A stretch of DNA of 64,000 bases, from assembly GCA_045863235.1 (NCBI GenBank), contig BTUM01000005.1:122912-186911 (forward strand), read 5' to 3'. The notes under the pieces are model-generated. The model worked only from the letters and a program-made list of their open reading frames with translations, was not told the origin of the DNA and did no database searches. The first letter of the stretch is position 1. Each line of letters starts with the position of its first letter. The position numbers were made by a program, and so were the translations under genes. This stretch comes from Candidatus Xenobia bacterium (GTDB lineage Bacteria > Vulcanimicrobiota > Xenobia > Xenobiales > QWHO01). Below, piece after piece: positions 5,719-57,590 of this stretch.

Positions 5719-5791
5719 AGGCCAGGAAGGTCCTTTCAGGAGGGGGTGGAGGCTCCTTCTGTCCCGGGTAGCTGCGACCTTCCCCTGGCAA

Positions 5792-7627
5792 ATGATTGCG
5801 CTGCAGCGGAGGAGCCGGCAACCTGCGAGGGAACGTTCGGGTCATATCCGGAAAGGAGATCCTCCCCTCCCTGTGAGACGACGACTCATCGTGTTCTTCC
5901 TGGCCGCATGCCTGGTAGGCTGTGGCGGCGACACTGTGCCCCTCTCCCCGGCCCCCCTGCCTCCCGTCGATTTCGACCCGATCTCCGATCGAGCTCTGGC
6001 CAACGTGGCCTCAGCCAACGGCCTCACGGTGGCGGTCGGCTCCAACGGGCTGTTGCTCACCTCCAGCGACGGCCGAACGTTTACCCCGCGCAACTCCTCG
6101 GTGGGGGTGAACCTGCGAGGCGCGGCCTTCGGCGATGGGGTCTGGATCGCCGTGGGCGATGCCAGCACGATCGTTCGCTCGGCGGATGGCGGCGTAACCT
6201 GGACCCGGGTCAGCGTCCCGGTGTCCGGCTCGGCTTTTCGCGCCGCCACGTTCGGGCAGGGGCTCTTTCTGGTGGGAGGTTCGGGGGGTGTGATCCTGAC
6301 CTCGCCCGACGGCGTCACCTGGACCCAGGCCGTGAGCGGTACGGGCAACATCCTCTGGGGAGCCACCTTCGCGCGTGGTCTGTTTGTGGTCAGCGGTCAG
6401 TTTGGGACCCTGTTGACCAGTCCGGACGGTCGGGCCTGGACCGCTCGGCCCTCGGGGGTGAACAGCTTCCTGTGGCAGGTGATCGAAGGGCCGCCAGGGT
6501 TCGTGGCCGTGGGCGATCAGGGGGCCATCACCTTCTCACCGGATGGGATCAACTGGACGGCTCAGGCCTCACCAACGGGCGAGGTGCTGCGAGGCGTGAC
6601 CTTCGGCCGGGGGGGATTCGTGGCCGCCGGCAGCCAGGGGACCTTGCTCGGGTCCGATGACGGTCGAGCCTTTCGCCTGCTGGACTCCCCGGTGGCCGAC
6701 GTCCTCCGGGGCGTGACCTTTGCCGATGGCACCACCTATGTAGCCGTCGGAGACGAGGGTACCATCTTGCTGTCTTATGATGGCCGGGACTTCTTCATCG
6801 ACCAGACGGCCGACCCCGAGGAACTCTGGGCCACCACCTTCGCCAACGGCATCTTCCTGGCCGGCGGGGGAGAGGGGAGGCTGCTCGTCTCGAGCGACGG
6901 CCAGAGCTGGCGCCGGATCGAGTCGGGCACGGCCGAGAACCTCTATGCGGCTGCCTTCGGAAACGGGCGTTTCGTAATGGTCGGCTCGCGGGGAGCCATT
7001 CTGACCTCGACCGATGCCCTCACCTGGACGGCCGTGCCCTCTCCGACGGACCAGAATCTCTACGGCCTGGCCTTTCTGAACGGCCTGTTCCTGGCCGGCG
7101 GCCTGGAAGGTACCCTTCTGACCAGCCCCGATGGCCTGACCTGGACTTCGGTGGCGGTTCCCTCGGTCCACGCCCTGCACGGCTTTGCCTTCGGGAACGG
7201 GGTATTCGTGGAGGGCGGAGCGGGCAGCCTGTTGACCTCGCCCGATGCGGTGACCTGGACCGTCAATGCCGTGGGGATCGGGCACTTTCAGACCGCGGCC
7301 GCCTTCGGCAACGGGGTCTTCGCGGTGCCGGGCCACGTGGGCCGGGTGCTGGTCAGCGCCGATGGAGTCAACTGGAGCCTGGTGCTGGCCCCCACCCAGG
7401 CCAACCTGAACGCGGCCCTCTTTGCCGGGGGCCAGTTCCTTTTGGGCGCCCAGGGCGCGGTGCTGACCTCGAGCGATGCCAGTAGCTGGGCTCTCCACGC
7501 TGTGCCGACCGACCAGAACGTGCGCGGGCTGGCTTTCGGCAACGGTCGTTACGTGGCCGTGGGGGGAGGGGAGGCTCTGCTCTTCTCGGTGGACGGGGTC
7601 CGCTGGGAGGCCGGGATCATCGAGTGA
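5792..7627 (+). CDS. BNR/Asp-box repeat beta-propeller lipoprotein (hypothetical)
   Basis: About 14 tandem ~40-aa repeats with an S-x-DG-x-TW core (SSDGRTFT, ADGGVTWT, SPDGVTWT, SPDGRAWT, ...). Lipoprotein signal FFLAACLVGCGG. An alternative GTG start at 5873 sits directly before the signal peptide. Confidence 0.8.
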   Translation: MIALQRRSRQPARERSGHIRKGDPPLPVRRRLIVFFLAACLVGCGGDTVPLSPAPLPPVDFDPISDRALANVASANGLTVAVGSNGLLLTSSDGRTFTPRNSSVGVNLRGAAFGDGVWIAVGDASTIVRSADGGVTWTRVSVPVSGSAFRAATFGQGLFLVGGSGGVILTSPDGVTWTQAVSGTGNILWGATFARGLFVVSGQFGTLLTSPDGRAWTARPSGVNSFLWQVIEGPPGFVAVGDQGAITFSPDGINWTAQASPTGEVLRGVTFGRGGFVAAGSQGTLLGSDDGRAFRLLDSPVADVLRGVTFADGTTYVAVGDEGTILLSYDGRDFFIDQTADPEELWATTFANGIFLAGGGEGRLLVSSDGQSWRRIESGTAENLYAAAFGNGRFVMVGSRGAILTSTDALTWTAVPSPTDQNLYGLAFLNGLFLAGGLEGTLLTSPDGLTWTSVAVPSVHALHGFAFGNGVFVEGGAGSLLTSPDAVTWTVNAVGIGHFQTAAAFGNGVFAVPGHVGRVLVSADGVNWSLVLAPTQANLNAALFAGGQFLLGAQGAVLTSSDASSWALHAVPTDQNVRGLAFGNGRYVAVGGGEALLFSVDGVRWEAGIIE

Positions 7628-7666: not shown

Positions 7667-7751
7667 TGGTATCCGGAGCCGGACTTGAACCGGCACGCCG
7701 CGAGGGCGCCAGCTTCTCGAGCTGACGTGTCTTCCATTCCACCATCCGGAC
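7667..7751 (-). tRNA. tRNA-Leu (anticodon GAG), type II with long variable arm
   Basis: Hand-folded: acceptor GTCCGGA/TCCGGAT with G1-U72, 3-bp D-stem, anticodon stem TCAGC/GCTGG, loop TCGAGAA, 14-nt variable arm, T-arm GCCGG-TTCAAGT-CCGGC, discriminator A, encoded CCA. C at position 33 is unusual. Confidence 0.7.
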
Positions 7752-7768
7752 AAGAGCGGTCGACAGAT

Positions 7769-7845
7769 TGGCGACCCTGGCGAGACTTGAACTCGCTACC
7801 CCCGGCTTCGTAGACCGGTGCTCTGATCCATTGAGCTACAGGGTC
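7769..7845 (-). tRNA. tRNA-Arg (anticodon ACG)
   Basis: Hand-folded 77 nt: acceptor GACCCTG/CAGGGTC, D-arm GCTCAATGGATCAGAGC, anticodon loop CTACGAA, T-arm AGCGAGTTCAAGTCTCGCC, encoded CCA. Confidence 0.85.
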
Positions 7846-7851
7846 ATTGAC

Positions 7852-7927
7852 TGGCAGACGCGGATGGCCTCGAACCACCGACCTTTGCGTTCAGAGCGCA
7901 ACGTTCTTCCTGCTGAACTACGCGTCT
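7852..7927 (-). tRNA. tRNA-Gln (anticodon CTG)
   Basis: Hand-folded 76 nt: acceptor AGACGCG/CGCGTCT, anticodon stem TTGCG/CGCAA with loop CTCTGAA, T-loop TTCGAGG, discriminator G, encoded CCA. Confidence 0.85.
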
Positions 7928-7962
7928 ATATATTCCTATTTATTGTTGAATAGGAATAAAAA

Positions 7963-8039
7963 TGGTAGGCTCGGAGAGATTCGAACTCTCAAGCACCTGC
8001 TTCTGAAACAGGTCTGTCTTCCAATTGCAGCACGAGCCC
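7963..8039 (-). tRNA. tRNA-like gene, class I fold, predicted anticodon CAG (identity uncertain; possibly atypical or pseudo-tRNA)
   Basis: Acceptor GGGCTCG/CGAGCCT (G1-U72), 3-bp D-stem, anticodon stem CCTGT/GCAGG with loop TTCAGAA, short variable loop, T-arm GAGAG-TTCGAAT-CTCTC, discriminator A, encoded CCA. A CAG anticodon with a short variable arm is non-canonical for bacterial tRNA-Leu. Confidence 0.5.
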
Positions 8040-42444: not shown

Positions 42445-45012
42445 ATGCGAACGCTCGTCTGGGTTTTCCTGTTGGGGGCTACACTCTTGCTTGGCTGCGG
42501 AGAACAGGGCGGCCAGGCTGGGGGCGGCCAGGTCGTTGCTCCCCAGCCGACCACGGCCGACCTGAAGGTGATCCTCGATCTCGCTGGAGCCAGTGCAGTC
42601 CCACCCCAGGTCGGCTTCCCCGAGAGCGCCGCGAGCTTCGTGCTCGAGGTGGAGGACCCGGTGGCGGGAGGAGTGCTGGCCGGACCGGTGACCCTCGAGC
42701 GTCAGGCGGGCCAGGCTCGCCTGGAGCAGTTCTTCCCCGATCTGCCCGTCGGTCCGCTGCGGTTGCTGGTGACCACCCTGGACCCCCGGGGAGCCCGGCT
42801 GGGCCTGTCGGACCAGATCTTCAACCTGGCCGCGCCGGAGAGCCAGGCCACCATCTCCTCTTTGTTCATGCCCGGACCTACCCGGGAGATCGGGCTGATC
42901 AGCATCGGCCAGCAGGGGGTCAATGGCCCCAGCCGTCAGCCGGCCATCAGCAGCGACGGGCGTTTCGTGGCCTTCAGCTCCTCGGCCACCAACCTCCTCT
43001 CCACGCTCAGCACTGGCACCCCCGTCAACCGCATCTACGTGCGCGACCGCCTGACCGGCGTGGTCCGGCTCGGATCGCTGGTAAGCCCGACTTCCCAGAT
43101 CGGCGGTATTACGGACGGCACCTCGAACACGCTGCTCTTTTCCGAGACCAGCCCTCTGAACGGCTCCACTGCGGACGGAACCTCCAACACTCTGCTCTTC
43201 ACCGAGGTCACCGGGGGGGACCAGAAACCCGACCTGTCCGGGGACGGGCGCTTCGTGGTCTACGAGCGTCAGGTCGACCTTCGCAGCGGCACCGAGATCC
43301 ACATGCGCGATACCCGGGGGCGCCTGGCCAACAAGCTTACTCCTGCGACCATCGTGGTTGGAACGCAAACACTGACCATCGCCTCCGGATCCGATCCCCG
43401 CATCTCCGAGGACGGTCGCTTCGTGGTCTACACCGCGCGAATCACGGGCCAGCGCGACCAGATCGTTCTCTATGATCGCTTCAGCAACACCACGGTCCTG
43501 GCCACCGGCACGCTGTCGGCCGTGACTTGCAGCCGTCCGGTGATGACGCCCGACGCAGGGCAGATCTTCTTCTTCTCGGGTCAATTCTCCAGCGGTTTCG
43601 AGTTGCTGGTCCACAACCGCGCTGCCGCCACGACCACCCGCATCGGCCCCCTGTCCACCGAGAATGTCCCCTGCGCGGTCTCGCGAGACGGCAACCTGGT
43701 CGCGGTCAACTCCAGCCGGCGCCTGCTCTTGATCGACCGCACCCAGGGCACCACCACCGAACTCCCGCGTCCGGATGCCCTGGCCATCGAGGGAGCCCCC
43801 TCCCTGTCTGCGGACGGCCGATTCGTGACCTTCTGCTCGAGCCGGCCCGACCTGGTGTCCAACGACCTGAACGCTCGCAGGGATGCGTTCGTGCTCGACC
43901 GGTCCAACGGGGTCATCAGCCGCCTCAACGTGTCCAACGACGGCACGGCGGTAGAAGGCGGGGTGGAGCTCTCCGGACCGCCCGTCATCGCCCGCGACGG
44001 CTCGCGCATCGCCTTCGCCAGCGACGACACCCTGCTCGTCCCCAACGACAACAACAATGCCACCGACATCTTCAGCGCCGTCAACCCGACGACCGGTCGT
44101 CTCTACCTGGCCCAGCCCTCCTCCATCATGCGCTTCGACAACCTGGTGACGGCCCGGGAGACTCTGACGCCGGCCGCCACCATCACCAGCCCGTCGCTCG
44201 GACCGGCGACTGCCGATCTCTTCCTGGATACCCTCAATGACCGGTTGTATGTGGCTACGGGTCCCGGCGCGGTGGTGGATCGGGTGCTGGTTTTCGATCA
44301 GGCCAGCACGCTGAACGGCTCGGTGACCCCTGCCCTGGAGGTGGCTCTGCCGGTCCAGGGCCGCGGGCTTTTCCTGGATGCAGGCCGAGATACGGTCTTT
44401 CTGGGCAATACCATCCGTCGCAACATCTCGAGCACTCTCACGCTGAGTGGAAGCTCCGACGTGACCACGCTCCCCATCACCCCGACGGCGCTGCACGTGG
44501 ATACCCGACGGGCCGAGCTTTATGCGGCCAGTTTTCCCGGGCAGGTGGAGGTCTTTGCAGTCCAGGAGACCCCGGTTCGGGTTCGATTCCTGGACACGCT
44601 GGCCAACAGCATCGTGCGGGGCCTGGCGCTGGACATCTCTCCGGCTGGCATTTTGGGAGTTAACCGGGCCAACCTGATGGTGCAGGCCGACGGGAACCGG
44701 GCGGCGGGAACGGTGCCTCCCAACCAGCTGAACCGCCTGGCGCGCTTCTCCGGCAATGGCAGCGACCCCAACCAGGCTTTTGCTCTGGTCAACCTGCTGG
44801 CCGGCACCCGGACCCGCTTCGGAACCCCGCCCGCGACGATCGCACGCGGCACGGGCCCGCTGCAGCTCGATGTCTTCACCGGCACGGCCTATTCGGCCGA
44901 TTTTGCCCGGGTGCTGGTCTTTCCGGTCTCCGCCAATGGAGACGTGCTTCCCAGCCGGATCCTGCGTCCGGGATTCGGCCCTCGCGGGATGGCCATCGAC
45001 CGAACCCGGTAG
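42445..45012 (+). CDS. PD40/TolB-like beta-propeller lipoprotein with tandem DGTSNTLLF motifs
   Basis: Lipoprotein signal MRTLVWVFLLGATLLLGCG. Repeated PD40-like blades (ISSDGRFVAFSS, LSGDGRFVVYER, ISEDGRFVVYTA, LSADGRFVTFCS, IARDGSRIAFAS). Tandem ITDGTSNTLLFSET / TADGTSNTLLFTEV. Confidence 0.8.
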   Translation: MRTLVWVFLLGATLLLGCGEQGGQAGGGQVVAPQPTTADLKVILDLAGASAVPPQVGFPESAASFVLEVEDPVAGGVLAGPVTLERQAGQARLEQFFPDLPVGPLRLLVTTLDPRGARLGLSDQIFNLAAPESQATISSLFMPGPTREIGLISIGQQGVNGPSRQPAISSDGRFVAFSSSATNLLSTLSTGTPVNRIYVRDRLTGVVRLGSLVSPTSQIGGITDGTSNTLLFSETSPLNGSTADGTSNTLLFTEVTGGDQKPDLSGDGRFVVYERQVDLRSGTEIHMRDTRGRLANKLTPATIVVGTQTLTIASGSDPRISEDGRFVVYTARITGQRDQIVLYDRFSNTTVLATGTLSAVTCSRPVMTPDAGQIFFFSGQFSSGFELLVHNRAAATTTRIGPLSTENVPCAVSRDGNLVAVNSSRRLLLIDRTQGTTTELPRPDALAIEGAPSLSADGRFVTFCSSRPDLVSNDLNARRDAFVLDRSNGVISRLNVSNDGTAVEGGVELSGPPVIARDGSRIAFASDDTLLVPNDNNNATDIFSAVNPTTGRLYLAQPSSIMRFDNLVTARETLTPAATITSPSLGPATADLFLDTLNDRLYVATGPGAVVDRVLVFDQASTLNGSVTPALEVALPVQGRGLFLDAGRDTVFLGNTIRRNISSTLTLSGSSDVTTLPITPTALHVDTRRAELYAASFPGQVEVFAVQETPVRVRFLDTLANSIVRGLALDISPAGILGVNRANLMVQADGNRAAGTVPPNQLNRLARFSGNGSDPNQAFALVNLLAGTRTRFGTPPATIARGTGPLQLDVFTGTAYSADFARVLVFPVSANGDVLPSRILRPGFGPRGMAIDRTR

Positions 45013-47190: not shown

Positions 47191-47523
47191 GAGAGAATCT
47201 CCTTCCGAGAGTGGGCATGCTTTCAGCGGGGACAGCAAGGGCTGACGAGTTTGGAATGCGGCGCGACGAGTCCTTCTTTCCCGAGATGCGGACTGGTAGG
47301 TTCCAGGTTCCCCGGTCCAGCACCAACACCCGGGTAAGACTCGTCGGTTCGCAGCTCTCCAGACCGCACCTGGACCCATCCTACTGCGGACAGACAGGGC
47401 CTGGGAGACAAGGGACGTGGGATTGACGACCTCCGTCATCTGCTGACTGACCAGGGGTTGACTTGATCCGATCGCTTGACACGGGTGCGAAATTCGGCCA
47501 CAAAGGTCTTGCGAGCACAATCG

Positions 47524-47913
47524 ATGAGCTTTCGGCGAAGAACCTGCTCGGGGGGAACCTGGCAGTGGCTGACCCTGCTCTTGTGGCTCGTTTTGTGCTC
47601 TCCGGGCCTGGCCGAGGACGACTTCTGTGGCCGACCCATCTGTTGCTCAGGTTGCGCCCAGGGCTGCTGTACGGGCGGGGTCTGTGGCGGGGCTGGAACC
47701 ACTGGTTGCCCGGACAACGCGGGCGTCAGCGGACGCTGCCAGCCTCTTGTGACCGAGCTTCCCGTCAGTTCCACCACCCGGCCGCCTGAGCTGGCCATCG
47801 CCCTCCCTTCGATGGCCCTGGCGCGTCAGCCCGATCCAGCTTTGTCGCTTCCCTTCGAGGCTCAATGGCCGCTCCGGCTGCTCGAGCCACCACCGGTCCC
47901 ACCTCCACGCTAG
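47524..47913 (+). CDS. Small secreted Cys-rich protein (hypothetical; possible metal-binding)
   Basis: ATG 47524 gives MSFRRRTCSGGTWQWLTLLLWLVLCSPGLA (signal-like), then CGRPICCSGCAQGCCTGGVCGGAGTTGCPDNAGVSGRC. The opposing ORF is low-complexity. Confidence 0.45.
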   Translation: MSFRRRTCSGGTWQWLTLLLWLVLCSPGLAEDDFCGRPICCSGCAQGCCTGGVCGGAGTTGCPDNAGVSGRCQPLVTELPVSSTTRPPELAIALPSMALARQPDPALSLPFEAQWPLRLLEPPPVPPPR

Positions 47914-47961
47914 AGCGACTCCGGCGCCCGCTCTCAGCACAAATTATGAGGAGGAGATCCA

Positions 47962-49056
47962 ATGAACCCCAGAACCAGGGGGCAAGCCTGGCTTGTCCTG
48001 TTGCTCCTTTGTTGTCTCTCGCTCCCGGCGCCGGCCGGCGAATGCGATTGCTCCGCCTGCCCCACCGAGGAGAATCCCACCACCGGGACCTGGACCCTGA
48101 CCATCGGCTACGACCACATGGACATGGGGACCCTGCTGCAAGGCTCCACCCGGGTCAGCCCCACTCAGGCAGCCCTGGACGGACTGGCGGCCAACGGCTC
48201 GCCCATGTTCGTGGTGCCCACCTCCATGCTCATGGAGCGCTTTGTCCTGCGGGCGCGCTACGCCCTGGACGAGCGCCAGAGCATCGGTCTGTCCCTGCCC
48301 CAGGTGCTCAACCAGATGGACATGCTGATGGTGATGGCCCCGATGCCCGCGGTCGGTCCGGGAATGGGCATGCCCGGAATGGGAATGCCCATGCCGGCCG
48401 CGGGTCCTACCTTCCGCTCGATGACGATGGACCCGATCAACCAACTGGGCGACATCGTGCTGCATTACTCCTACGACGTGATCGATGAGTCCGACGCTCG
48501 CCTGACGCTGGGAGTGGGCTTGAAGACCCCCACGGGCGATTCTCAGGTGCGCGACCCCAACGGGCGCTTGATTCACGCCATGATGCAGCCGGGCAGCGGG
48601 TCGTGGGACGCGGTGCTGACCGCCAGTGGACGCGTGGAGCTCGACGAGACCTGGGCCATCGAGCCCGCTCTGAGCTACCAGCTCACCAGTCGCAATGAGC
48701 TCGGCTACCGTTTCGGTAACCGATTCGGCTACGATCTGGGACTGCGCTGCCGGGTGCTCGAGCCCCTCACGCTGAGGCTCGACCTCAACGGTGTGGTGAC
48801 GGGTCGTGACAGCACCGACGGCACGCTCGACCCGGGGACCGGCACGGTCGCCTACCAGCGACCCGCCACTTCGCTCATCGACAACGTGCAGAACACCGGG
48901 CTCAGCACGCTCTACCTCTCGCCTGGTCTCACCTGGCGGATCGTGGACGAGGTCGGGGTGACGGTGCAGCACCGGATCCCCATCGCCCGCTCGGTCAACG
49001 GCACCCAGCTGGTGACCGACGGCTGGACCCAGATCCAGCTGAGCGGCAGCTTCTGA
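47962..49056 (+). CDS. Outer-membrane beta-barrel protein with Met-rich (MxM/MGMPGMGMPMP) segment; candidate metal (Cu) channel
   Basis: Signal peptide MNPRTRGQAWLVLLLLCCLSLPAPAG followed by ECDCSACP. Alternating beta-strand pattern with a terminal Phe (…QLSGSF). Met-rich insert MDMLMVMAPMPAVGPGMGMPGMGMPMPAAGP. Confidence 0.75.
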   Translation: MNPRTRGQAWLVLLLLCCLSLPAPAGECDCSACPTEENPTTGTWTLTIGYDHMDMGTLLQGSTRVSPTQAALDGLAANGSPMFVVPTSMLMERFVLRARYALDERQSIGLSLPQVLNQMDMLMVMAPMPAVGPGMGMPGMGMPMPAAGPTFRSMTMDPINQLGDIVLHYSYDVIDESDARLTLGVGLKTPTGDSQVRDPNGRLIHAMMQPGSGSWDAVLTASGRVELDETWAIEPALSYQLTSRNELGYRFGNRFGYDLGLRCRVLEPLTLRLDLNGVVTGRDSTDGTLDPGTGTVAYQRPATSLIDNVQNTGLSTLYLSPGLTWRIVDEVGVTVQHRIPIARSVNGTQLVTDGWTQIQLSGSF

Positions 49057-49062
49057 GGCGCC

Positions 49063-50103
49063 TCAGGCTGCCGCAGCCAGCCGCCAGCCGATGGGATCCT
49101 CCGGGTCCACGCCCTCAACGAAGGGGCGGTGACGCTCGAGGTGGGTGAGCTGGTAGACCAGACCCAGCCAGTTGTTGAAAACGGCCTTGCCGGTATCGCC
49201 CCAGGTGTTGTCCAGCAAGTCTTCCAGCTCGGCTTCGGGAAAGGTCTCCAGCTCACCCCGTCGGTAGCGCTCCGCCAGGGCCTCGGCCCCCGGGGGGAAG
49301 TAACCTTCCGGAAAGGGAGGCGGATGCGCCAGCTCGCCCGCCAGGTAGCGCAGCACCTCGCGCTTGTATTCCTTGAGCAGGCTGTTGAGGTCATACTCGG
49401 GATGGCCCTGCGAGTAGACGACGCGCAGACCGTCCGGGCTGACGGCCAGGTGCACCTCGTCGTGGTCGTCCAGGATTAGCGGCGTCACCCCGCACTGGCG
49501 CAGCCGCTCGGCGCTGACCGTGTTCCAGCGAGAGTGGGGCACGTCGAAGCGCGTGTTGATGTCGTGCAGCAAGGGGTGCTGCAGGCGTGCCTTGCGGTGG
49601 CGATAGACGCCCCAGCGCTTGGCAGGCAGCGGTTGGCGACGGATGCCGTAGAGGTGCTCGAGCACCGCGTGGCTGGCCAGGCACGAGCACCACACCGAGG
49701 TCACCCGGCGCGTGGCCCAGGCCAGCACCTCCATCAACGGTTCCCAGAAAGGCTCCTGGCGGAGGTCGGGCCGGGTGACGTTGGCCCCGGTCACGATCAG
49801 GGCGTCCAGGCCTTCGCTCTTGAGTTGCTCGAAGCTTCGATAGTGGCGGGCGATGTACTGCTCCGCCTCGGGGCTCCGGGGGAGGCCCGGCAGGCTGAAG
49901 GGGTGCACGTAGAACTGGGCGATCTGGTTGCAGTTTCCCACCAGCTTCAGGAACTGCCGCTCGGTGACCTGGAGGGCAGCGTCCGGCATCATGTTCAGGA
50001 AGCCGATGTGGAGCTCTCGGATGTCCTGGCGGGTGGCCTGCTCCAGCGACAGAGCCCCGGGAAGATTGAGGCTGGGCAGCTCGAGGTGGCGGACCAGCGG
50101 CAT
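49063..50103 (-). CDS. metA: Homoserine O-succinyl/acetyl-transferase MetA
   Basis: 346 aa. N-terminal IRELHIGFLNMMPD and the HTS-family architecture. Immediately downstream of metB with a 1-nt gap. Confidence 0.9.
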   Translation of the reverse strand: MPLVRHLELPSLNLPGALSLEQATRQDIRELHIGFLNMMPDAALQVTERQFLKLVGNCNQIAQFYVHPFSLPGLPRSPEAEQYIARHYRSFEQLKSEGLDALIVTGANVTRPDLRQEPFWEPLMEVLAWATRRVTSVWCSCLASHAVLEHLYGIRRQPLPAKRWGVYRHRKARLQHPLLHDINTRFDVPHSRWNTVSAERLRQCGVTPLILDDHDEVHLAVSPDGLRVVYSQGHPEYDLNSLLKEYKREVLRYLAGELAHPPPFPEGYFPPGAEALAERYRRGELETFPEAELEDLLDNTWGDTGKAVFNNWLGLVYQLTHLERHRPFVEGVDPEDPIGWRLAAAA

Positions 50104-50104
50104 C

Positions 50105-51283
50105 TCAGGCCACCTTTAGCCCGGCGGGCAGGGTGGCCGTGAGGGCAGCCTCGAGGTCAGCCTCGAGGTCCTCGGGGCACTCCAGGCCCACCGACAATCG
50201 CAAGAGCTGGCTGGAGATGCCCGCCGCCAGACGGGCGGCCTCGTCCATGGAGGCGTGGGTCATGCTGGCGGGATGGGCGATCAGGCTTTCCACCCCTCCC
50301 AGCGACTCGGCCAGGCTGAAGAAGCGCAGATTTTCGAGCAGGATGCGAAGCTCCGGCTCGCCGCCGGCCAACTCGAAGCTGATCATGGCCCCGAACCCGC
50401 TCTGCTGCTGGCAGGCCAGGGCGTGGCCCGGGTGGTCGGCCAGGCCCGGGTAGTAGACTTTCTCCACGGCAGGGTGCTGCTGCAAGAACCGGGCCAGCTC
50501 TCTGGCGCTCGTCTCTTGCTGGCGGATCCGCACCGGCAGGGTGCGCAGCCCGCGCAGGGTCTGGTAGCTGTCGAAGGGGGAGCCTGTGTTGCCGATGCAG
50601 TTGGCCCACCAGGCGAAGTCCTGGTGCAACTCAGCCGTGCGCGAGACCAGGGCGCCTCCCACCACGTCGCTGTGGCCATTGAGGTATTTGGTGGTGGAGT
50701 GGACCACCACGTCGGCGCCGAGCTCGAGCGGGCGCTGCAGCACCGGTGAGAGGAATGTGTTGTCGGCCGCAAAGAGCGTGCCGTGGGCCCGACAGAGCCG
50801 GGCCACCGCTCGCAGGTCGGTGAGGCGCAGCAGCGGGTTGCTGGGGGTCTCGACCAGGATCAGGCGGGGAGCCTCCTCGGCGAAGGCCGCCTCCAGGGCG
50901 GCCGGGTCGGTCTGGTTGACCAGCTTGAGGCGGAAGTAGCCTCGCTCGGCTTTGTTGCGCAGCAGCCTGTGAGTGCCTCCATAGCAGTCGTGGGGGGCGA
51001 GCAAGAGGTCGCCGGGCCGCAGCGCGTAGGTGAGAAGATCCAGGGCGGCCATGCCGGAGGAGGTGAGCACCGCTGCGTAGCCGCCCTCGAGCTTGCTGAT
51101 GGCTTCGGCGGTGACGTCGCGGGTGGGGTTGCCGCTGCGGGTGTAATCATACTGGCGTTTGCCCTGATAGCCGTCGAAGGTGTAGTTGCTGGAAAGATAC
51201 AGCGGGGGCATGACGGCTCCGTGGGCGCGATCCTGACCGACTCCGGTGCGGGCGGCGATGGTGCTACAGTTGGGTTCCGGCAT
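50105..51283 (-). CDS. metB: Cystathionine gamma-synthase / O-succinylhomoserine sulfhydrylase (PLP-dependent Cys/Met metabolism family)
   Basis: YTRSGNPTRDVTAEAISKLEGG...STTKYLNGHSDVVGGALV (PLP Lys in TTKYLNGH). RBS GGAGAG-N7-ATG. Confidence 0.9.
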   Translation of the reverse strand: MPEPNCSTIAARTGVGQDRAHGAVMPPLYLSSNYTFDGYQGKRQYDYTRSGNPTRDVTAEAISKLEGGYAAVLTSSGMAALDLLTYALRPGDLLLAPHDCYGGTHRLLRNKAERGYFRLKLVNQTDPAALEAAFAEEAPRLILVETPSNPLLRLTDLRAVARLCRAHGTLFAADNTFLSPVLQRPLELGADVVVHSTTKYLNGHSDVVGGALVSRTAELHQDFAWWANCIGNTGSPFDSYQTLRGLRTLPVRIRQQETSARELARFLQQHPAVEKVYYPGLADHPGHALACQQQSGFGAMISFELAGGEPELRILLENLRFFSLAESLGGVESLIAHPASMTHASMDEAARLAAGISSQLLRLSVGLECPEDLEADLEAALTATLPAGLKVA

Positions 51284-51398: not shown

Positions 51399-51515
51399 CG
51401 CCTCATCTCTCGGCGAAACTCGCCGCAGGACTTGGCACCTTAATCCGCTTTGGGCGGAACAGGTTGCCCCAGCTTCACAGGGCCTGAACCCTCGACTGGT
51501 CTTGATGATTGGTTC
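51399..51515 (-). promoter_or_regulatory. SAM-I (S-box) riboswitch aptamer in the metB-metA leader
   Basis: Minus-strand RNA AAUCAUCAAGACCAGUCGAGGGUUCAGGCCCUGUGAAGCUGGGGCAACC...AAGGUGCCAAGUCCUGCGGCGAGUUUCGCCGAGAGAUGAGG matches the S-box consensus blocks (AUCAAGAG, GAGGGA, GGCCC, UGAAGC, GGCAACC, GGUGCCAA.UCCUGC, GAGAGAUGAG, P1 CAUC/GAUG). The downstream platform has hairpins and a CUCUC anti-SD candidate against GGAGAG. Confidence 0.85.
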
Positions 51516-51870: not shown

Positions 51871-52152
51871 GTGGCCAGCCCTGAAGAGGTTCGACATCCC
51901 TACGTCACGTCTCGTCCCGATGTGTGCGGCGGTAGCCCGGTCATTGTGGATACAAGATTCCCGGTGCGATCGGTGGTCAACTACGTCCTCAAACAGGGTC
52001 TTTCTCCGGAGGAGTTGGTGTTGGAGTTTCCTCACCTGACCCTCGCTAAAGTCTACGATGCGCTTTCCTACTACTACGACTACCAAGCTGAGGTCGACGC
52101 AGAGATCGAGGAGTGCACCGAGGCGCATTTGAAGCCGAAAAAGATCGCTTAG
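51871..52152 (+). CDS. DUF433-family protein (antitoxin-like partner)
   Basis: RPDVCGGSPVIVDTRFPVRSVVNYVLKQGLSPEELVLEFPHLTLAKVYDALSYY matches the DUF433 consensus. Local GC is markedly lower than flanking DNA. Confidence 0.75.
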   Translation: MASPEEVRHPYVTSRPDVCGGSPVIVDTRFPVRSVVNYVLKQGLSPEELVLEFPHLTLAKVYDALSYYYDYQAEVDAEIEECTEAHLKPKKIA

Positions 52153-52506
52153 ATGGCCTCGCCTCGCATCCTCTGTGACGAGGATGTCCGAATCTTGCTC
52201 GCAGAGGTCCTTCGGCAGAGAGGTTACGACGCGGTCCACGTGTCCGAGCAGAATCGGTCAGGCAAGACTGACATCGAGCAACTGGAATTCGCAGTGGAAG
52301 AACGCCGTGCATTCCTGACTCACAATGTTGGAGACTTTGTCGTGTTGCATCGAAGGTTTGGGGAAGAGGGTCGAAGCCATTTTGGAATCATCGTCTCCGA
52401 CCAACTACCCTTTGGTGAGTTGCTTCGCCGAACTCTGCGTTTCGTGAGTCGATTCACGGCCGACGAACTGAACAATCGGCTCATCTGGCTGCATGACTTC
52501 AAGTAA
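52153..52506 (+). CDS. DUF5615 / PIN-like (Mut7-C-like) putative toxin, partner of DUF433
   Basis: Starts 1 nt after the DUF433 stop. Conserved acidic residues (ILCDEDV...D...THNVGDF). DUF433-DUF5615 gene pairs are recognised putative TA modules. Confidence 0.65.
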   Translation: MASPRILCDEDVRILLAEVLRQRGYDAVHVSEQNRSGKTDIEQLEFAVEERRAFLTHNVGDFVVLHRRFGEEGRSHFGIIVSDQLPFGELLRRTLRFVSRFTADELNNRLIWLHDFK

Positions 52507-52926: not shown

Positions 52927-53185
52927 ACTTGCACGGGGGCACGATGAAGGCCCGACGCGAGCGAAGCGGGAGCATCCTGTGGCAGGTCGGGATTCGGAAC
53001 GGTCAGCCTTACCGGGTATTCCGCGACGACGTGAGGCTCGGGCGCCGTCGGTCTGGTTGCACGGGGACACGATGAAGGCCCGGCGCGAGCAAGGCGGGAC
53101 CATCCTGTGGCAGGTCGGGATTCGGAATGGTCAGGCTTATCGGGTGTTCCGCGACGACAGGTGGAGTTCGAGACGACTGACTTCC
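52927..53185 (+). repeat. 128-bp tandem direct duplication (two copies, about 90% identical over the first ~100 nt), each carrying an RBS-like GGGG(A/G) plus a small ORF
   Basis: Copy 1 ORF 52944..53075 (MKARRERSGSILWQVGIRNGQPYRVFRDDVRLGRRRSGCTGTR). Copy 2 ORF 53072..53230 (MKARREQGGTILWQVGIRNGQAYRVFRDDRWSS...). ATGA overlap between them. Half of the 8 nt differences across the conserved 87 nt are synonymous. Confidence 0.5.
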
Positions 53186-55221: not shown

Positions 55222-55352
55222 GCCGGCAAGGGTAGCACGGCGCTCTGAAAATGATCTGAAAGTTCATCCACAGTTTACCAACAGCCCCCCCTGTTCACGT
55301 TATCGTGACGTTGTTGTTCTCGGGGGAGCAGCTCAGAAAACGAGGAGGACCC

Positions 55353-57590
55353 ATGATCCGCGACCTGCAGAATTTCGCCCTCAACACCAACCAGGCTGTC
55401 ACCCGCCCGAGCTGCTCGTGCGGATCGTGCGCAAAGTGCGCCCCGAAGGCCGCCGATCCGAAGGAGACGGTGGAGCTCGGCTCCTCCTCCCCCAAGTCGG
55501 CTCCTCAACTGAGCTTACAGTCTCGCATCGCCTCGGTGTCGGCCGAGGCCGCCCACCTCGAGCAGAAGCTCAACGAGCACGTCGAGGGCGAGGTGATCGT
55601 CAAGCTCAAGCCGGGCAGCCAGGGCCTGGATGACTTCGCGGCCGAGTTCGGTGGTCAGACCCTGCACAAGTTCGACATCCCCAAGGACATCTACCAGAGC
55701 TTCGGCGGCGACCTGCTGCACATCAAGCTGCCGGCCGGCATGAGCACGGCCGCGGGCATCGCCCTGATGAGCAAGGACGAGCGGGTGGCCTACGCCACCA
55801 CCAACGACGTCCTCAAGGCCCTGGGCGACCCGGTCGGCCCCAACGACCTCGACCCCAAGCTGTGGGGCCTGCACAACACCGGCCAGAACGGCGGCACCGC
55901 CGACGCCGACATCGACGCCCCCGAGGCCTGGGCCACCAGCATCGGCTCGCGCTCGGGCCCGGTCATCGCGGTGATCGACACGGGCGTGGACTACAACCAC
56001 CCCGACCTTCGCGCCAACATCTGGACCAACCCCAACGAGATCCCTGGTGACGGTATCGACAACGACAACAACGGCGTGGTGGACGACGTGCACGGTTACA
56101 ACGCCATCAATGGCTCGGGCAACCCGATGGACGACCACTATCACGGCACCCACTGCGCCGGCACCATCGGTGCCGAGGGCAACAACGGCCAGGGCGTGGT
56201 GGGCGTGCAGTGGGAAGCGCAGATCATGCCGGTCAAGTTCCTCTCGGGTTCGGGCAGCGGCACCCTGGCCGACGCCGTCAAGGCCATCCTTTACGCCGGG
56301 CGCAACGGAGCCCGCATTACCTCCAACTCGTGGGGCGGCGGCGGCTACAACCAGGCGCTCTATGACGCCCTGAAGAGCTCGCCCAGCCTGCACATCTTCG
56401 CGGCCGGCAACGAGTCCAACAACAACGACCGTCGTCCCGCCTACCCGGCCAGCTACGACCTGCCCAACATCGTCAGCGTGGGCGCCTCGGACAAGAACAA
56501 CCGCCAGGCTTCCTTCTCGAACTACGGCGCCAAGACGGTCGACCTGCACGCCCCGGGCGTGGACATCTACTCCACCGTCACCAATGGCGGCTACCGCAAC
56601 CTGTCGGGCACGTCGATGGCCTGCCCCCACGTCTCGGGCGTGGCCGGCCTGATCGCCACCGCCTATCCCGACGCCACCAACGACCAGATCAAGGCTCGCC
56701 TGATGAACGGCGCCGTCAAGGTGCCCGCCTTCGAGGGCAAGTCGGTTACCGGCGGCCTCTTGAACGCGCCTAACTCGCTCGACAACGACAGCCGTCCCCC
56801 GGCCGCGCCCAACGACTTCCGCGTCAGCGGCTCCACGGCCAACTCGGTCACCTTGAACTGGACGGCCACCGGCGACGACGGCTGGTGCGGACAGGCCTCG
56901 GGCTACGAGGTGCGCCTCGCGGACAAGCCCATCGTGGACGGCGAGGCGGCCGAGAACCAGGTGAGCTTCGACGAGGCGGCCTCGGTTCCGACCGGCTCTC
57001 CTTCGGCCACCGGCACCATCGAAGGCGCCACCATCAGCGTGCCGCTCTCGGATACCGACAAGACCTACCACGTGGCTCTCAAGGTGACCGATAACGTGGG
57101 CAACCGCTCGGAGATCCGCACCGCCGAAGTGCGCGTTCCGGCCGCCACGGTGGCCTTCAAGGACGACTTCGAGGGCGAAGAGGCCAACTTCACCCCCGAG
57201 GGCCAGTGGGGCCGGGTCGAGATCGAGGGCCGGGGCAAGGTCTGGACCGACACCCCCAACGGAAACTACGACAACAGCCAGAACACCTCGCTGACCTCGC
57301 GGGCCATCGACCTGGGGAACCTGTCGGGCAGCACCCTGGTGTTCGACTCCAAGATCGACTCCGAGCAGAACTACGACAAGGCCAACATCGAGGTCAGCAC
57401 CGACGGTCAGACCTGGAACAAGCTGGCCGAGCTGACCGGGCAGCAGGACTGGACCAAGCAGCAGGTCGACCTGTCGGCCTACGACGGCCAGAGCGTGCAG
57501 GTGCGCTTCCGCTTCCAGTCCGATAGCTCCCAGGTGGGCGACGGGTTCTACCTCGACAACGTGATGATCGCCGGCTCGCCGCGCCAGTAG
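55353..57590 (+). CDS. Subtilisin-like serine protease (S8) with I9 propeptide, FN3-like and C-terminal MAM-like domain (paralog C)
   Basis: Start ATG 55353 with RBS GGAGGA-N5. Triad blocks VIDTGVDYNHPDL, HGTHCAGTIGAEG, GTSMACPHVSGVAGLI. FN3-like (VTLNWTATGDDG). MAM-like C-terminus (WGRVEIEGRGKVWTDTP...YDKANIEVSTDGQTWNKL...GFYLDNVMI). N-terminus MIRDLQNF plus Cys-rich SCSCGSCAKC, no signal peptide. About 70% identity to paralog A across the catalytic domain. Confidence 0.9.
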   Translation: MIRDLQNFALNTNQAVTRPSCSCGSCAKCAPKAADPKETVELGSSSPKSAPQLSLQSRIASVSAEAAHLEQKLNEHVEGEVIVKLKPGSQGLDDFAAEFGGQTLHKFDIPKDIYQSFGGDLLHIKLPAGMSTAAGIALMSKDERVAYATTNDVLKALGDPVGPNDLDPKLWGLHNTGQNGGTADADIDAPEAWATSIGSRSGPVIAVIDTGVDYNHPDLRANIWTNPNEIPGDGIDNDNNGVVDDVHGYNAINGSGNPMDDHYHGTHCAGTIGAEGNNGQGVVGVQWEAQIMPVKFLSGSGSGTLADAVKAILYAGRNGARITSNSWGGGGYNQALYDALKSSPSLHIFAAGNESNNNDRRPAYPASYDLPNIVSVGASDKNNRQASFSNYGAKTVDLHAPGVDIYSTVTNGGYRNLSGTSMACPHVSGVAGLIATAYPDATNDQIKARLMNGAVKVPAFEGKSVTGGLLNAPNSLDNDSRPPAAPNDFRVSGSTANSVTLNWTATGDDGWCGQASGYEVRLADKPIVDGEAAENQVSFDEAASVPTGSPSATGTIEGATISVPLSDTDKTYHVALKVTDNVGNRSEIRTAEVRVPAATVAFKDDFEGEEANFTPEGQWGRVEIEGRGKVWTDTPNGNYDNSQNTSLTSRAIDLGNLSGSTLVFDSKIDSEQNYDKANIEVSTDGQTWNKLAELTGQQDWTKQQVDLSAYDGQSVQVRFRFQSDSSQVGDGFYLDNVMIAGSPRQ

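Follow-up and report, generated by a model that had tools for sequence, protein, structure and literature searches.

Examination of a 64,000-nucleotide stretch of genomic DNA from a Candidatus Xenobia bacterium (contig BTUM01000005.1, positions 122,912 to 186,911; the whole of this stretch is termed 'the window' below) has revealed a two-gene unit, in which a small open reading frame (ORF) encoding an exported, cysteine-rich peptide is followed by the gene for a methionine-rich outer-membrane beta-barrel of the COG4313/PF13557 family. With moderate confidence, this unit is taken to combine a leader-ORF metal sensor of the CutF/CruR type with an outer-membrane channel for a metal ion, probably copper. 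The passage of copper across the bacterial outer membrane is poorly defined, and the known candidates comprise general porins, TonB-dependent receptors of the OprC/NosA type, and PcoB/CopB, for which the direction of transport is disputed. If the reading offered here is true, a Met-lined and Cys-plugged barrel family becomes a concrete candidate for a passive Cu(I) channel, and some members of what is now annotated as a channel family for phenol or hydrophobic compounds would be reassigned.

Two leader sensors of this kind, the prototypes of DUF2946, have been described experimentally. CutF, encoded in the cutFOG operon of Rhodobacter capsulatus, possesses a Sec signal peptide, a CxxxC motif and the C-terminus PEPEGPPPRL, and copper bound to its periplasm-exposed motif prolongs ribosome stalling, which in turn melts a stem-loop that shields the Shine-Dalgarno (SD) sequence of cutO (PMC9973294; bioRxiv 10.1101/2025.02.05.636593); the peptide itself is undetectable in vivo (PMC9973294). 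CruR (Bp2923 of Bordetella pertussis) is a DUF2946 upstream ORF whose product has an export signal and carries CXXC and, near its C-terminus, the arrest motif RAPP, these two motifs lying at a conserved distance of 45 residues and RAPP only three residues from the end of the peptide; in that system, copper sensing by the nascent chain relieves the arrest and leads to Rho-dependent termination 5' of the TonB-dependent transporter gene bfrG (PMC9426467). A survey of CutF-like ORFs, defined as those shorter than 150 residues that encode a signal peptide, end with PP among their last 15 residues and are followed on the same strand by a gene no more than 1000 nt away, identified 5,334 members in 29 sequence clusters with differing Cys/His motifs, most of which lie 5' of RND/OEP, CusF, TonB-like or PCuAC genes (PMC9973294).

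The small ORF of the window follows the same architecture. Its 129-residue product, which is below the length limit of that class, begins with MSFRRRTCSGGTWQWLTLLLWLVLCSPGLA followed by EDDFCGRPICCSGCAQGCCTGGVCGGAGTTGCPDNAGVSGRCQP and ends in LLEPPPVPPPR before a TAG stop, with PP inside the last 15 residues (EPPPVPPPR), and the ATG of the same-strand barrel gene is found 48 nt further on. A signal peptide can be read from the sequence (an RRR n-region, a 12-residue hydrophobic core WQWLTLLLWLVL, and cleavage between GLA and ED), and an AlphaFold2 model of the protein, which is a single-sequence prediction of low confidence and is informative for the signal-peptide helix only, consists of a helix at residues 12-25 alone, with no fold. 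Eleven Cys are present in total, nine of them within residues 35-72; six of these nine are invariant in the clade, metal binding by the group is predicted, and the cluster is built of Cys only, without His. A preliminary description of this DNA had proposed a Cys-rich secreted mini-protein with a signal peptide and a Cys cluster, followed by a barrel, and both ORFs are indeed present.

Comparison with related genomes established that this ORF is not fortuitous. The same small ORF lies directly 5' of the barrel orthologue in every Eremiobacterota relative read from DNA, at loci whose barrels are 93% (L001/L017), 81% (L015), 78% (L004/L014), 67% (L008) and about 54% (L010 and L016) identical to that of the window, and the close relatives are placed in Eremiobacterota/Xenobiales. 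Against the L004 counterpart, substitutions number 30/20/60 at codon positions 1/2/3. Throughout the Eremiobacterota clade C44, C48, C49, C54, C62 and C72 are invariant, together with four Gly and the final P-x-V-x-PPR; past the Cys cluster there follows a variable Pro/Ala/Leu-rich stretch that continues up to the tail, and the 48 residues that separate the Cys block from the tail vary, with indels, even inside this clade. As judged from its upstream conservation, the bias of substitutions by codon position and the Cys that are invariant in the clade, the small ORF is a translated gene under selection, and more than a chance ORF. Small ORFs of this class are often unannotated, or displaced by antisense calls, in high-GC genomes: at L001 a 221-residue antisense ORF (5174-5839, minus strand) is annotated in place of the true small ORF, and a long antisense ORF likewise overlaps the gene in the window. 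Such a call is an annotation artefact of high-GC DNA, one that hides leader ORFs of this class.

Additional analyses of distant barrel homologues demonstrated that the arrangement extends well beyond the clade. Most of them are preceded by an ORF for a secreted protein of 94-167 residues, whose N-terminal part is rich in Cys and/or His and whose tail is of a common type, as in the terminal sequences EKPPRYFI, DKPPSALL, DRPPEL, EEPPESTLFS and TRPPSA, each followed by a stop codon. When 17 small ORFs were aligned (from Eremiobacterota, Nitrospirota, metagenome-assembled genomes (MAGs) of delta-proteobacteria, Planctomycetota/Brocadiales and others), the only invariant positions beyond the initial Met were one Cys and the second Pro of the PP motif, the first Pro being conserved in more than 90%. 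A Cys is found 49-61 residues ahead of the second Pro in 16 of these 17, and the main Cys/His cluster approximately 65-100 residues ahead of PP; in the window ORF, the clade-invariant Cys lie 56-93 residues ahead of the PP motif, the nearest being 56 residues before the second Pro. By our estimate, a length of about 55 residues or more would span the ribosomal tunnel and the Sec channel, and the Cys cluster would then be periplasmic when the ribosome stands at the prolines. Such a spacing would fit the 'transmembrane sensing' proposed for CutF, and parallels the Cys-to-RAPP spacing of CruR. A profile built from the 17 sequences returned eight matches, apparently all from one non-Eremiobacterota group and none annotated as DUF2946.

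The association between leader and barrel was quantified by a locus screen, in which an ORF was required to encode a hydrophobic N-terminus (Kyte-Doolittle value of at least 2.0 over 10 residues), at least three Cys/His, and PP in the last 15 residues. An ORF passing this rule was found on the same strand, within 2.6 kb 5' of the barrel, at 28 of 35 Met-rich barrel loci, compared with a background of 12 among 1367 ORFs (0.9%); none of three generic COG4313 barrel loci possessed one. At Brocadia and Nitrospinota loci the leader ORF heads a longer operon, and at some loci another gene intervenes before the barrel. One counterpart (L025) matches the whole length of the Pfam DUF2946 (PF11162) model (E = 2e-7; 32 bits, with the cutoff at 23.7), and a second (L026) matches it weakly (E = 0.048).

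Comparison with the two characterised sensors indicates both the extent and the limits of the likeness. With CutF the window ORF shares a length below 150 residues, a Sec signal peptide, a Cys motif and a PPP tail at the stop (GPPPRL in CutF, VPPPR here), as well as a short intergenic region, a helix predicted to shield the SD, the position of first gene, and the lack of a dedicated regulator protein. It differs in that the target of CutF is a multicopper oxidase rather than an outer-membrane COG4313 barrel, that CutF carries CxxxC whereas 9-11 Cys are found here, that the two have no detectable sequence or profile similarity, that their hosts are Pseudomonadota and Eremiobacterota respectively, and that SD shielding is without statistical support at the window locus. 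With CruR it shares an exported Cys-containing leader ORF, a C-proximal xxPP, a conserved Cys-to-PP spacing, and a place at the head of an operon for an outer-membrane metal transporter (a candidate one in the window), and CruR would be the closest functional analogy if the barrel imports copper. CruR differs in that its target is TonB-dependent and is controlled by Rho-dependent termination within a spacer of 162 nt (PMC9426467), and in its RAPP and CXXC motifs 45 residues apart. The window ORF, which is not recognised by the Pfam model of DUF2946, carries VPPPR and clusters of the CC/CxxC type in their place, an arrangement that is analogous and not identical. SecM and the RAPP-type leaders ApdA/ApdP also use an exported nascent chain with a C-terminal arrest motif to govern access to the SD of the next gene, but monitor secretion activity and not metal.

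The pattern of conservation described above also bears on a different explanation, according to which the small protein is a stable, mature periplasmic partner of the metallothionein or chaperone kind that exchanges metal with the barrel, its proline tail being incidental or serving a dual role. This is considered unlikely, even though the strict co-occurrence of the small ORF with the barrel and the frequency of thiol reductases as neighbours would both be expected of it, and even though a Cys/Gly block of such density exceeds the CxxxC/CxxC motifs of CutF and CruR. Across phyla only the export signal, the Cys/His cluster, its distance from PP and the PP tail are kept, the rest being unalignable, and such sparse conservation is typical of leader peptides and not of folded partners; moreover, the residues between the Cys block and the tail vary within the clade, no fold is predicted (weak evidence, as it comes from a single-sequence model), the small ORF is always on the same strand and 5' of the barrel, at the head of the operon wherever this can be checked, and CutF itself escapes detection in vivo. 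The preliminary description's suggestion of a metallothionein-like or metallochaperone-like protein is therefore probably wrong, and an arrest leader of the CutF/CruR type fits better. Precursors of bufferins (MNIO-modified peptides) are defined by adjoining DUF692 (MNIO) and DUF2063 genes; no DUF692/DUF2063 or modifying-enzyme genes lie beside the window pair or in relatives, and a ribosomally synthesised, post-translationally modified peptide (bufferin) precursor was rejected.

Besides a signal peptide, the product of the downstream gene has GECDCSACP at its mature N-terminus, and it contains the stretch PMPAVGPGMGMPGMGMPMPAAGP and 20 Met in all; the ECDCSACP and MGMPGMGMPMP segments pointed out in the preliminary description are thus present. 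Its sole Pfam match at E <= 1 is PF13557 (Phenol_MetA_deg; 24.0 bits, a small margin over the cutoff of 22; E = 4.6e-5), a family carried by many of its homologues, and no NCBIfam model matches either this protein or its small neighbour. An AlphaFold2 model based on 41 homologues is confident (predicted local distance difference test, pLDDT, 87; predicted template modelling score, pTM, 0.81), and consists of 12 long strands with short turns on one side. Foldseek comparison with the PDB returned FapF (5O67, E = 2.7e-14) at the top, followed by the COG4313 channel Pput2725 (4RL8, E = 4.3e-14). The barrel shares with the COG4313 channels a 12-stranded, monomeric-type architecture of similar size, a Glu at mature position 2 as in Pput2725, and conserved PTG and QPGSGSWD loop motifs. 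The preliminary description had likened the barrel to CopB/PcoB and CusF; PF05275 is not matched at E <= 1, no PcoB is found among the top 50 PDB matches, and membership of the CopB/PcoB or CusF families was rejected for want of HMM (hidden Markov model) or fold support.

Trimeric FapF, which exports unfolded polypeptide, carries a coiled-coil at its N-terminus as well as a helical plug. Its rank as the best structural match, its standing as the only solved structure reached by a sequence profile of the barrel (E = 4e-5), and the fact that it too (5O65/5O67, from Pseudomonas) is encoded alongside small secreted substrates raise the prospect that the present barrel is a secretion pore, and the apparently unstructured small protein, strictly paired with it, an unfolded cargo such as an extracellular metal-capturing peptide. 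This is regarded as the least probable of the alternatives weighed here. Pput2725 matches about equally well and the Pfam family is PF13557; the barrel model has no long N-terminal periplasmic domain, and neither the coiled-coil nor the plug helix of FapF; and a secretion pore would leave unexplained the fixed PP tail at the stop, the Cys-PP spacing and the SD complementarity, while the Met, His and Cys thought to face the lumen suggest a path for a small ion.

The first 14 residues of Pput2725 lie within its lumen, which they enter from the periplasmic side, and its Glu2 is among the few residues conserved family-wide (PMC4493636). The barrel of the window retains this Glu (G-E-C-D-C), and by analogy with the Pput2725 N-terminus, which fills the lumen with its conserved Glu2, its own N-terminus with two Cys would plug the lumen. 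Ahead of strand 1 the mature protein has only about 18 residues, in which the model places no helix, and the segment has a pLDDT below 50, the model being unreliable for residues 16-35.

In an alignment that combined 19 members of the subfamily, sharing 31-93% identity with the window barrel, and one generic COG4313 protein as outgroup, the potential soft ligands Met, His and Cys proved to be conserved in this branch. Fully or nearly invariant among the 19 are E27, C28, C30, M55, M89, M91 and N117, and likewise M119, M121, M156, H205, M207 and M208, the last three of which are invariant throughout the 19 and form part of the motif in loop L3; M128 and M154 are 84% conserved, and thirteen Met/His/Cys positions in all reach at least 84%. 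In strands 1-4 the Met occupy an alternate face that they share with Thr/Asp (strand 1) or with Arg (R93/R97/R99 in strand 2, R152 in strand 4), and they sit in the strand half closest to the long loops; because that face is shared with polar Arg/Asp/Thr, these Met pairs presumably look into the lumen. The Met/Gly/Pro-rich insert in loop L2 has low pLDDT and lies on the long-loop side of the barrel, for which reason (the usual topology rule) it would be extracellular and, in the model, disordered. It is found in all nine clusters at 48-93% identity (P0001-P0009), with variable length (about 40 residues in one) and M/G/P/A composition, and is absent from homologues at 45% identity or less (P0010-P0029). 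Sequence comparison thus marks the MGMPGMGMPMP insert as specific to the clade, and the conserved, apparently lumenal Met/His/Cys set is independent of it.

An exhaustive HMM search of 1.84 billion cluster representatives identified 5,783 family members at E <= 1e-3, of which 148 reached E <= 1e-30. Among the best 150 family matches, those with an exact HAMMQPG motif contain on average 5.8% Met, and the remainder 2.5%. Typical COG4313 members contain 0.3-2% Met (about 1%) and 0-1 Cys, with an N-terminus of the DHxSxGxG type and, among the best matches, (F/L)ET(E/D)xQPGSGSWD in L3; most of the Met-rich members examined at full length instead have, close to their mature N-terminus, GEC..CC, CC or CxC, and their L3 reads H-x-(M/P/V/H)-M-QPG. 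The generic members examined are set apart by their ETExQPG motif, and the characterised ones by a link to hydrophobic substrates, from a subfamily in which Met amounts to 4-9%, the N-terminus bears a Cys pair, the loop reads HAMMQPG and the genomic context is of the metal type, and the replacement of the generic ETExQPG and DHxS motifs by HAMMQPG and GEC..CC indicates, from the sequences, that at two conserved sites hard (acidic) ligands have been swapped for soft ones (thioether, thiolate and imidazole). A further Met/His-rich PF13557 subgroup (P0135, P0151, P0158, P0167 and P0181) contains 8-9.6% Met and 0-1 Cys, with no Cys pair; four of the five carry N-terminal motifs such as HAPIxIMGDHxH, and the subgroup may represent a second, independent metal-type lineage of PF13557.

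PcoB and CopB carry a Met-rich disordered N-terminal periplasmic tail, and pco/cop operons are controlled by two-component systems. In the barrels studied here, the Met are located instead in a loop that is probably extracellular and in the lumen wall; the resemblance is that PcoB/CopB, too, are outer-membrane barrels implicated in passive copper passage (PMC9210255).

The characterised COG4313 members TcpY and SphA take up hydrophobic molecules, and the family has been described only as channels for hydrophobic compounds (PMC4493636). An ordinary channel of this kind, in which Met (itself hydrophobic) merely renders the lumen greasy and the small ORF has no regulatory role, would agree with the PF13557 assignment, but is thought very unlikely: an invariant Cys pair, a His and Met pairs replace the generic acidic and His motifs, CutF-like ORFs accompany the subfamily far more often than the background of ORFs in the screen, and relatives have thiol reductases and copper proteins as neighbours. 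The preliminary description had held that a match to a hydrophobic-compound porin family, with the Met-rich segment absent in orthologues and no metal-responsive expression, would speak against a metal role; the barrel does match such a family, whereas the insert is missing only at 45% identity or below and is present in the nine closer clusters. No aromatic-catabolism gene family occurs among the neighbour families listed.

Neighbour scans of Met-rich barrel loci, conducted both in bulk (32 loci) and on individual loci, provided evidence as to the metal. The commonest neighbour possesses an AhpC-TSA/redoxin fold, with 15 matches among the neighbour ORFs of the 32 loci, often directly after the barrel, and the two tested against NCBIfam matched best as thiol-disulfide oxidoreductases of the ResA/TlpA/DsbE type. 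The clearest copper link of the subfamily is a row of genes in a Nitrospinota MAG (L021, 2364-7284), in which a His/Cys-rich leader ORF (GHNHGHNHG...) is followed by a PF13557 barrel, a redoxin, a Met-rich barrel, a second redoxin, and a copper storage protein of the Csp1 family (TIGR04401, 114 bits, cutoff 100). A SCO1/SenC neighbour is present at L007/L008 (a 67% barrel orthologue), and at L010 there is an adjoining RND pump with a CusB-like adaptor, the permease of which matches CusA/CzcA no better than it matches a multidrug pump. The metal-handling theme of the preliminary description therefore stands, by virtue of the Met/His/Cys-rich subfamily and of the Csp1, SCO1, thiol reductase and CusB-like genes of relatives, and its CopB/CusF and chaperone specifics do not. 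Its remark that no cop/cus regulator is adjacent also agrees with the window neighbours tested, and the reason may be that the small ORF itself would be the regulator, acting as a nascent chain.

Thioether and thiolate groups are classic ligands of Cu(I)/Ag(I) rather than of Co(II)/Ni(II), and the Mets motifs of Ctr1 and the Met sites of CusA/CusF offer an analogy. On both grounds, Cu(I) is the metal favoured in the Eremiobacterota clade, given its soft ligands, its sensor built of Cys only and its MxM-type loop. Other loci point elsewhere. In a Planctomycetota locus read gene by gene (L037), the leader ORF, the barrel and a second PF13557 barrel lie between CobD-CbiQ-CbiO and CobQ, and matches of the CbiQ, ABC-transporter and CobQ types recur in four neighbour ORFs across loci, CobD in three; in the Planctomycetota/Brocadiales MAG loci L036, L037, L042, L043 and L045, where spacers are 160-388 nt long and match nothing in Rfam, the metal may be cobalt. 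At L037 and L045 a 260-residue Cys-rich cytoplasmic protein overlaps the start of the leader ORF. That the window unit employs the same sensor and channel mechanism for another metal (cobalt, nickel or another thiophilic ion) is deemed quite unlikely; these cobalamin contexts, and the His-only clusters beside HupE/UreJ genes, apparently linked to Ni/Co, in the CutF survey (PMC9973294), argue for it, and the Met thioethers and Cys thiolates, the MxM-type loop that has been added in the Eremiobacterota clade, the Csp1 and SCO1 neighbours of other lineages, and the absence of His from the cluster of the window ORF argue against it.

The same neighbours (Csp1, SCO1, TlpA-like proteins and cobalt uptake), with their flavour of acquisition and assembly, favour import, and the contexts of relatives lean towards uptake with negative feedback by periplasmic copper. 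Import would predict repression by metal, as in CruR, yet the PPP tail and short spacer resemble CutF, in which the outcome is induction. In Brocadia-type loci (L028, L032, L038 and L039) a three-gene unit is found, comprising the leader ORF, a secreted His-tailed protein and the barrel. The middle protein is 236-330 residues long with a His-rich tail, for example GNHGDHGDHGGHHGGHNH, and is a candidate periplasmic metal-binding protein; that of L032 has no Pfam or NCBIfam match.

The mechanism proposed for the unit begins with the signal peptide of the small ORF, which would direct the nascent chain through the Sec translocon during translation. With the ribosome at the PPPR-stop sequence, the Cys cluster would trail the peptidyl-transferase centre by 56-93 residues, a distance that would put it in the periplasm next to the membrane, where the metal load of its thiols would alter the dwell of the ribosome on the proline motif, and this dwell time would set the expression of the barrel gene 48 nt downstream. 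This would most probably come about through a helix between the Pro codons and the barrel SD, which the stalled ribosome would keep open. The same logic has been demonstrated experimentally for CutF-cutO (PMC9973294) and, with opposite sign and a Rho read-out, for CruR-bfrG (PMC9426467). The barrel would be a passive, TonB-independent channel of the COG4313 type, in which the Met pairs of the lumen, the His-x-Met-Met of L3 and the Cys-x-Cys of the plug would together offer soft ligands along the path of Cu(I) or a comparable thiophilic ion, and the extracellular Met-rich loop of the Eremiobacterota might act as a metal capture line.

Signals in the DNA and RNA around the pair are in part consistent with this scheme. 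The TTGACA block of the putative promoter is invariant in four aligned orthologous upstream regions (hand alignment), and the sequence suggests that the segment is a promoter; the small ORF would then have a 5' leader of only some 11-13 nt, in which no obvious SD is seen, and a consensus promoter and terminator scan around the pair was uninformative and did not report the TTGACA block. A hairpin spans the stop codon of the small ORF, and because it is without a U-tract it is not an intrinsic terminator. The tail codons CCUCCAC (47902-47908) are complementary to the barrel SD, and in the minimum free energy fold of 47860-47985 the Pro codons ACCUCCAC (47901-47908) pair with the SD (47948-47955), enclosing the stop-codon hairpin. 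RNAalifold analysis of five Eremiobacterota loci returned the same two-tier structure, with three compensatory pairs in the inner hairpin (AGAGCG/CGCUCU in the window and L001 versus GAGCCG/CGGCUC in L004 and L015) and 86% of cells paired in the consensus hairpin, compared with 38-55% when the partner was slid by 1-3 columns; the covariation comes from five sequences and amounts to essentially one evolutionary event. Extended complementarity between tail and SD occurs elsewhere (CCUCCUCG/CGAGGAGG in L008 and GCCUCCUGAG/CUCAGGAGGC in L012), cognate tail-SD duplexes are more stable than non-cognate ones (-14.4 versus -12.6 kcal/mol, permutation p = 0.012), and the SD is significantly occluded in L004, L015, L029 and L012 relative to shuffled tails. 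At some loci the spacer between leader ORF and barrel is 137-388 nt long, and these may use another read-out, as CruR does; a search of Rfam with 11 related loci, including the long spacers of Planctomycetota and delta-proteobacteria, found no family at gathering score.

A number of results weigh against the sensor-and-channel interpretation, or against parts of it. At the window locus itself, the accessibility of the SD (0.27, against 0.18 with shuffled tails) reveals no extra occlusion, masking the footprint of a stalled ribosome leaves the SD unfreed, and the tail-SD duplex is unremarkable in rank; furthermore, Pro-Pro codons (CCU CCN) tend to complement any SD, and part of the signal is unavoidable. 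The duplex rank and the shuffle test do not support SD sequestration as a statistically distinctive feature of this locus, and SD masking at this locus is retained as plausible only in the sense of a clade-level consensus. A single-sequence search of 5.8 billion proteins with the small ORF returned no homologue (perhaps partly because gene callers missed such ORFs in some records), it has no match to DUF2946 (PF11162) at E <= 1, and hhalign, run between the small ORFs of the Eremiobacterota and the group to which L025 belongs, gave a probability of 1.7%; its assignment to the leader class is thus one of architecture and position, and not of homology to DUF2946. The six invariant Cys and four invariant Gly exceed the need of a sensor. 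As for the channel, the lumenal orientation of the Met and the extracellular placement of the insert derive from strand alternation and a topology rule rather than from coordinates, no metal or copper genes were found near the pair among the large ORFs tested at 33-62 kb of the window, and the cobalt/cobalamin context in Planctomycetota means that copper is not the sole candidate metal.

More tentatively, and with some doubt, the 'HAMM' branch of COG4313 might be regarded as a dedicated, TonB-independent conduit of the Cu(I) type, distributed over at least six phyla, with a Met ladder that confers selectivity and a Cys-x-Cys plug, and with its synthesis governed by nascent-chain metal sensors in place of a transcription factor; the plug could be redox-sensitive, and kept reduced by a ResA/TlpA-like partner where one is present. 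Less likely still is a variant in which the FapF-like barrel would export the leader peptide itself, to bind metal outside the cell. The pairing of small ORF and COG4313 barrel would constitute a new target for a known type of leader sensor: the main text and accessible supplements of the CutF and CruR papers mention no PF13557/COG4313 neighbours, and a full-text literature search for links between this barrel family and copper returned nothing relevant. Sensors that were first characterised experimentally in 2022-2023 would thereby be extended to a new class of target gene, to the Eremiobacterota, Nitrospirota/Nitrospinota and Planctomycetota, and to leader peptides that are missed by current HMMs and gene callers, and a metal gene without an adjoining regulator gene may still be regulated.

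Table 1. Features of the two-gene unit, in window coordinates.
Feature	Position	Strand	Description	Basis
Putative promoter	47476-47504	+	-35 TTGACA (47476-47481), 17-nt spacer, weak -10-like CACAAA (47499-47504)	
Antisense ORF	47436-47798	-	long ORF overlapping the small Cys-rich gene	
Small ORF	47524-47913	+	129 aa, first gene of the two-gene unit; CutF-like leader/sensor	architecture
Signal peptide of small ORF	47524-47613	+	Sec-type, aa 1-30	read from sequence
Cys cluster	47626-47739	+	aa 35-72, nine Cys; proposed periplasm-exposed metal-sensing segment	
C-terminal PPPVPPPR and TAG	47887-47913	+	proposed ribosome-arrest motif	
Stop-codon hairpin	47909-47938	+	core AGAGCG (47912-47917) / CGCUCU (47929-47934)	RNAalifold
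Barrel SD	47948-47956	+	GAGGAGGAG, strong	
Outer-membrane barrel	47962-49056	+	364 aa, 12-stranded; Met-rich 'HAMM' subfamily of COG4313/PF13557	
Mature N-terminal segment of barrel	48037-48090	+	GECDCSACPTEENPTTGT; presumed lumen-inserted plug with near-invariant E27, C28, C30	
Met/Gly/Pro-rich insert	48337-48408	+	loop L2 (strand 3 to strand 4), aa 126-149, with MGMPGMGMPMP	DSSP, pLDDT
L3 motif	48574-48609	+	HAMMQPGSGSWD, HAMMQPGSGSWD type	

The pair is flanked in the window by a divergent metallophosphoesterase gene (TIGR03767) and a convergent operon of the metA-metB type, neither of them informative as to the metal. In the latter, an S-adenosylmethionine (SAM) riboswitch (RF00162, 70 bits, 51400-51511, minus strand), the only riboswitch in the window, precedes genes for a Cys/Met pyridoxal phosphate (PLP) enzyme (50105-51283, minus strand) and a homoserine O-succinyltransferase (49063-50103, minus strand); these methionine-biosynthesis genes run towards the barrel gene, to which they bear no relation. 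Beyond it lie a pair of genes for DUF433 (93 residues) and DUF5615/PIN-like (117 residues) proteins (51871-52506, plus strand), probably a toxin-antitoxin module, and a 102-nt direct repeat in two copies (52929-53030 and 53057-53158; 91% identical, 128 nt apart) with no convincing gene.

Elsewhere in the window, three paralogous S8 subtilases of approximately 750 residues are encoded on the plus strand (36944-39178, 40156-42399 and 55305-57590), each with a C-terminal InhA-like MAM domain and two also with a fervidolysin-like prodomain. DUF1559 is a domain associated with Planctomycetota, and a weak match to it covers the first of two DGTSNTLLF(S/T)E motifs in an 855-residue secreted PD40/TolB-like beta-propeller protein (42445-45012, plus strand). 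A cluster of four tRNA genes is located at 7670-8039 on the minus strand.

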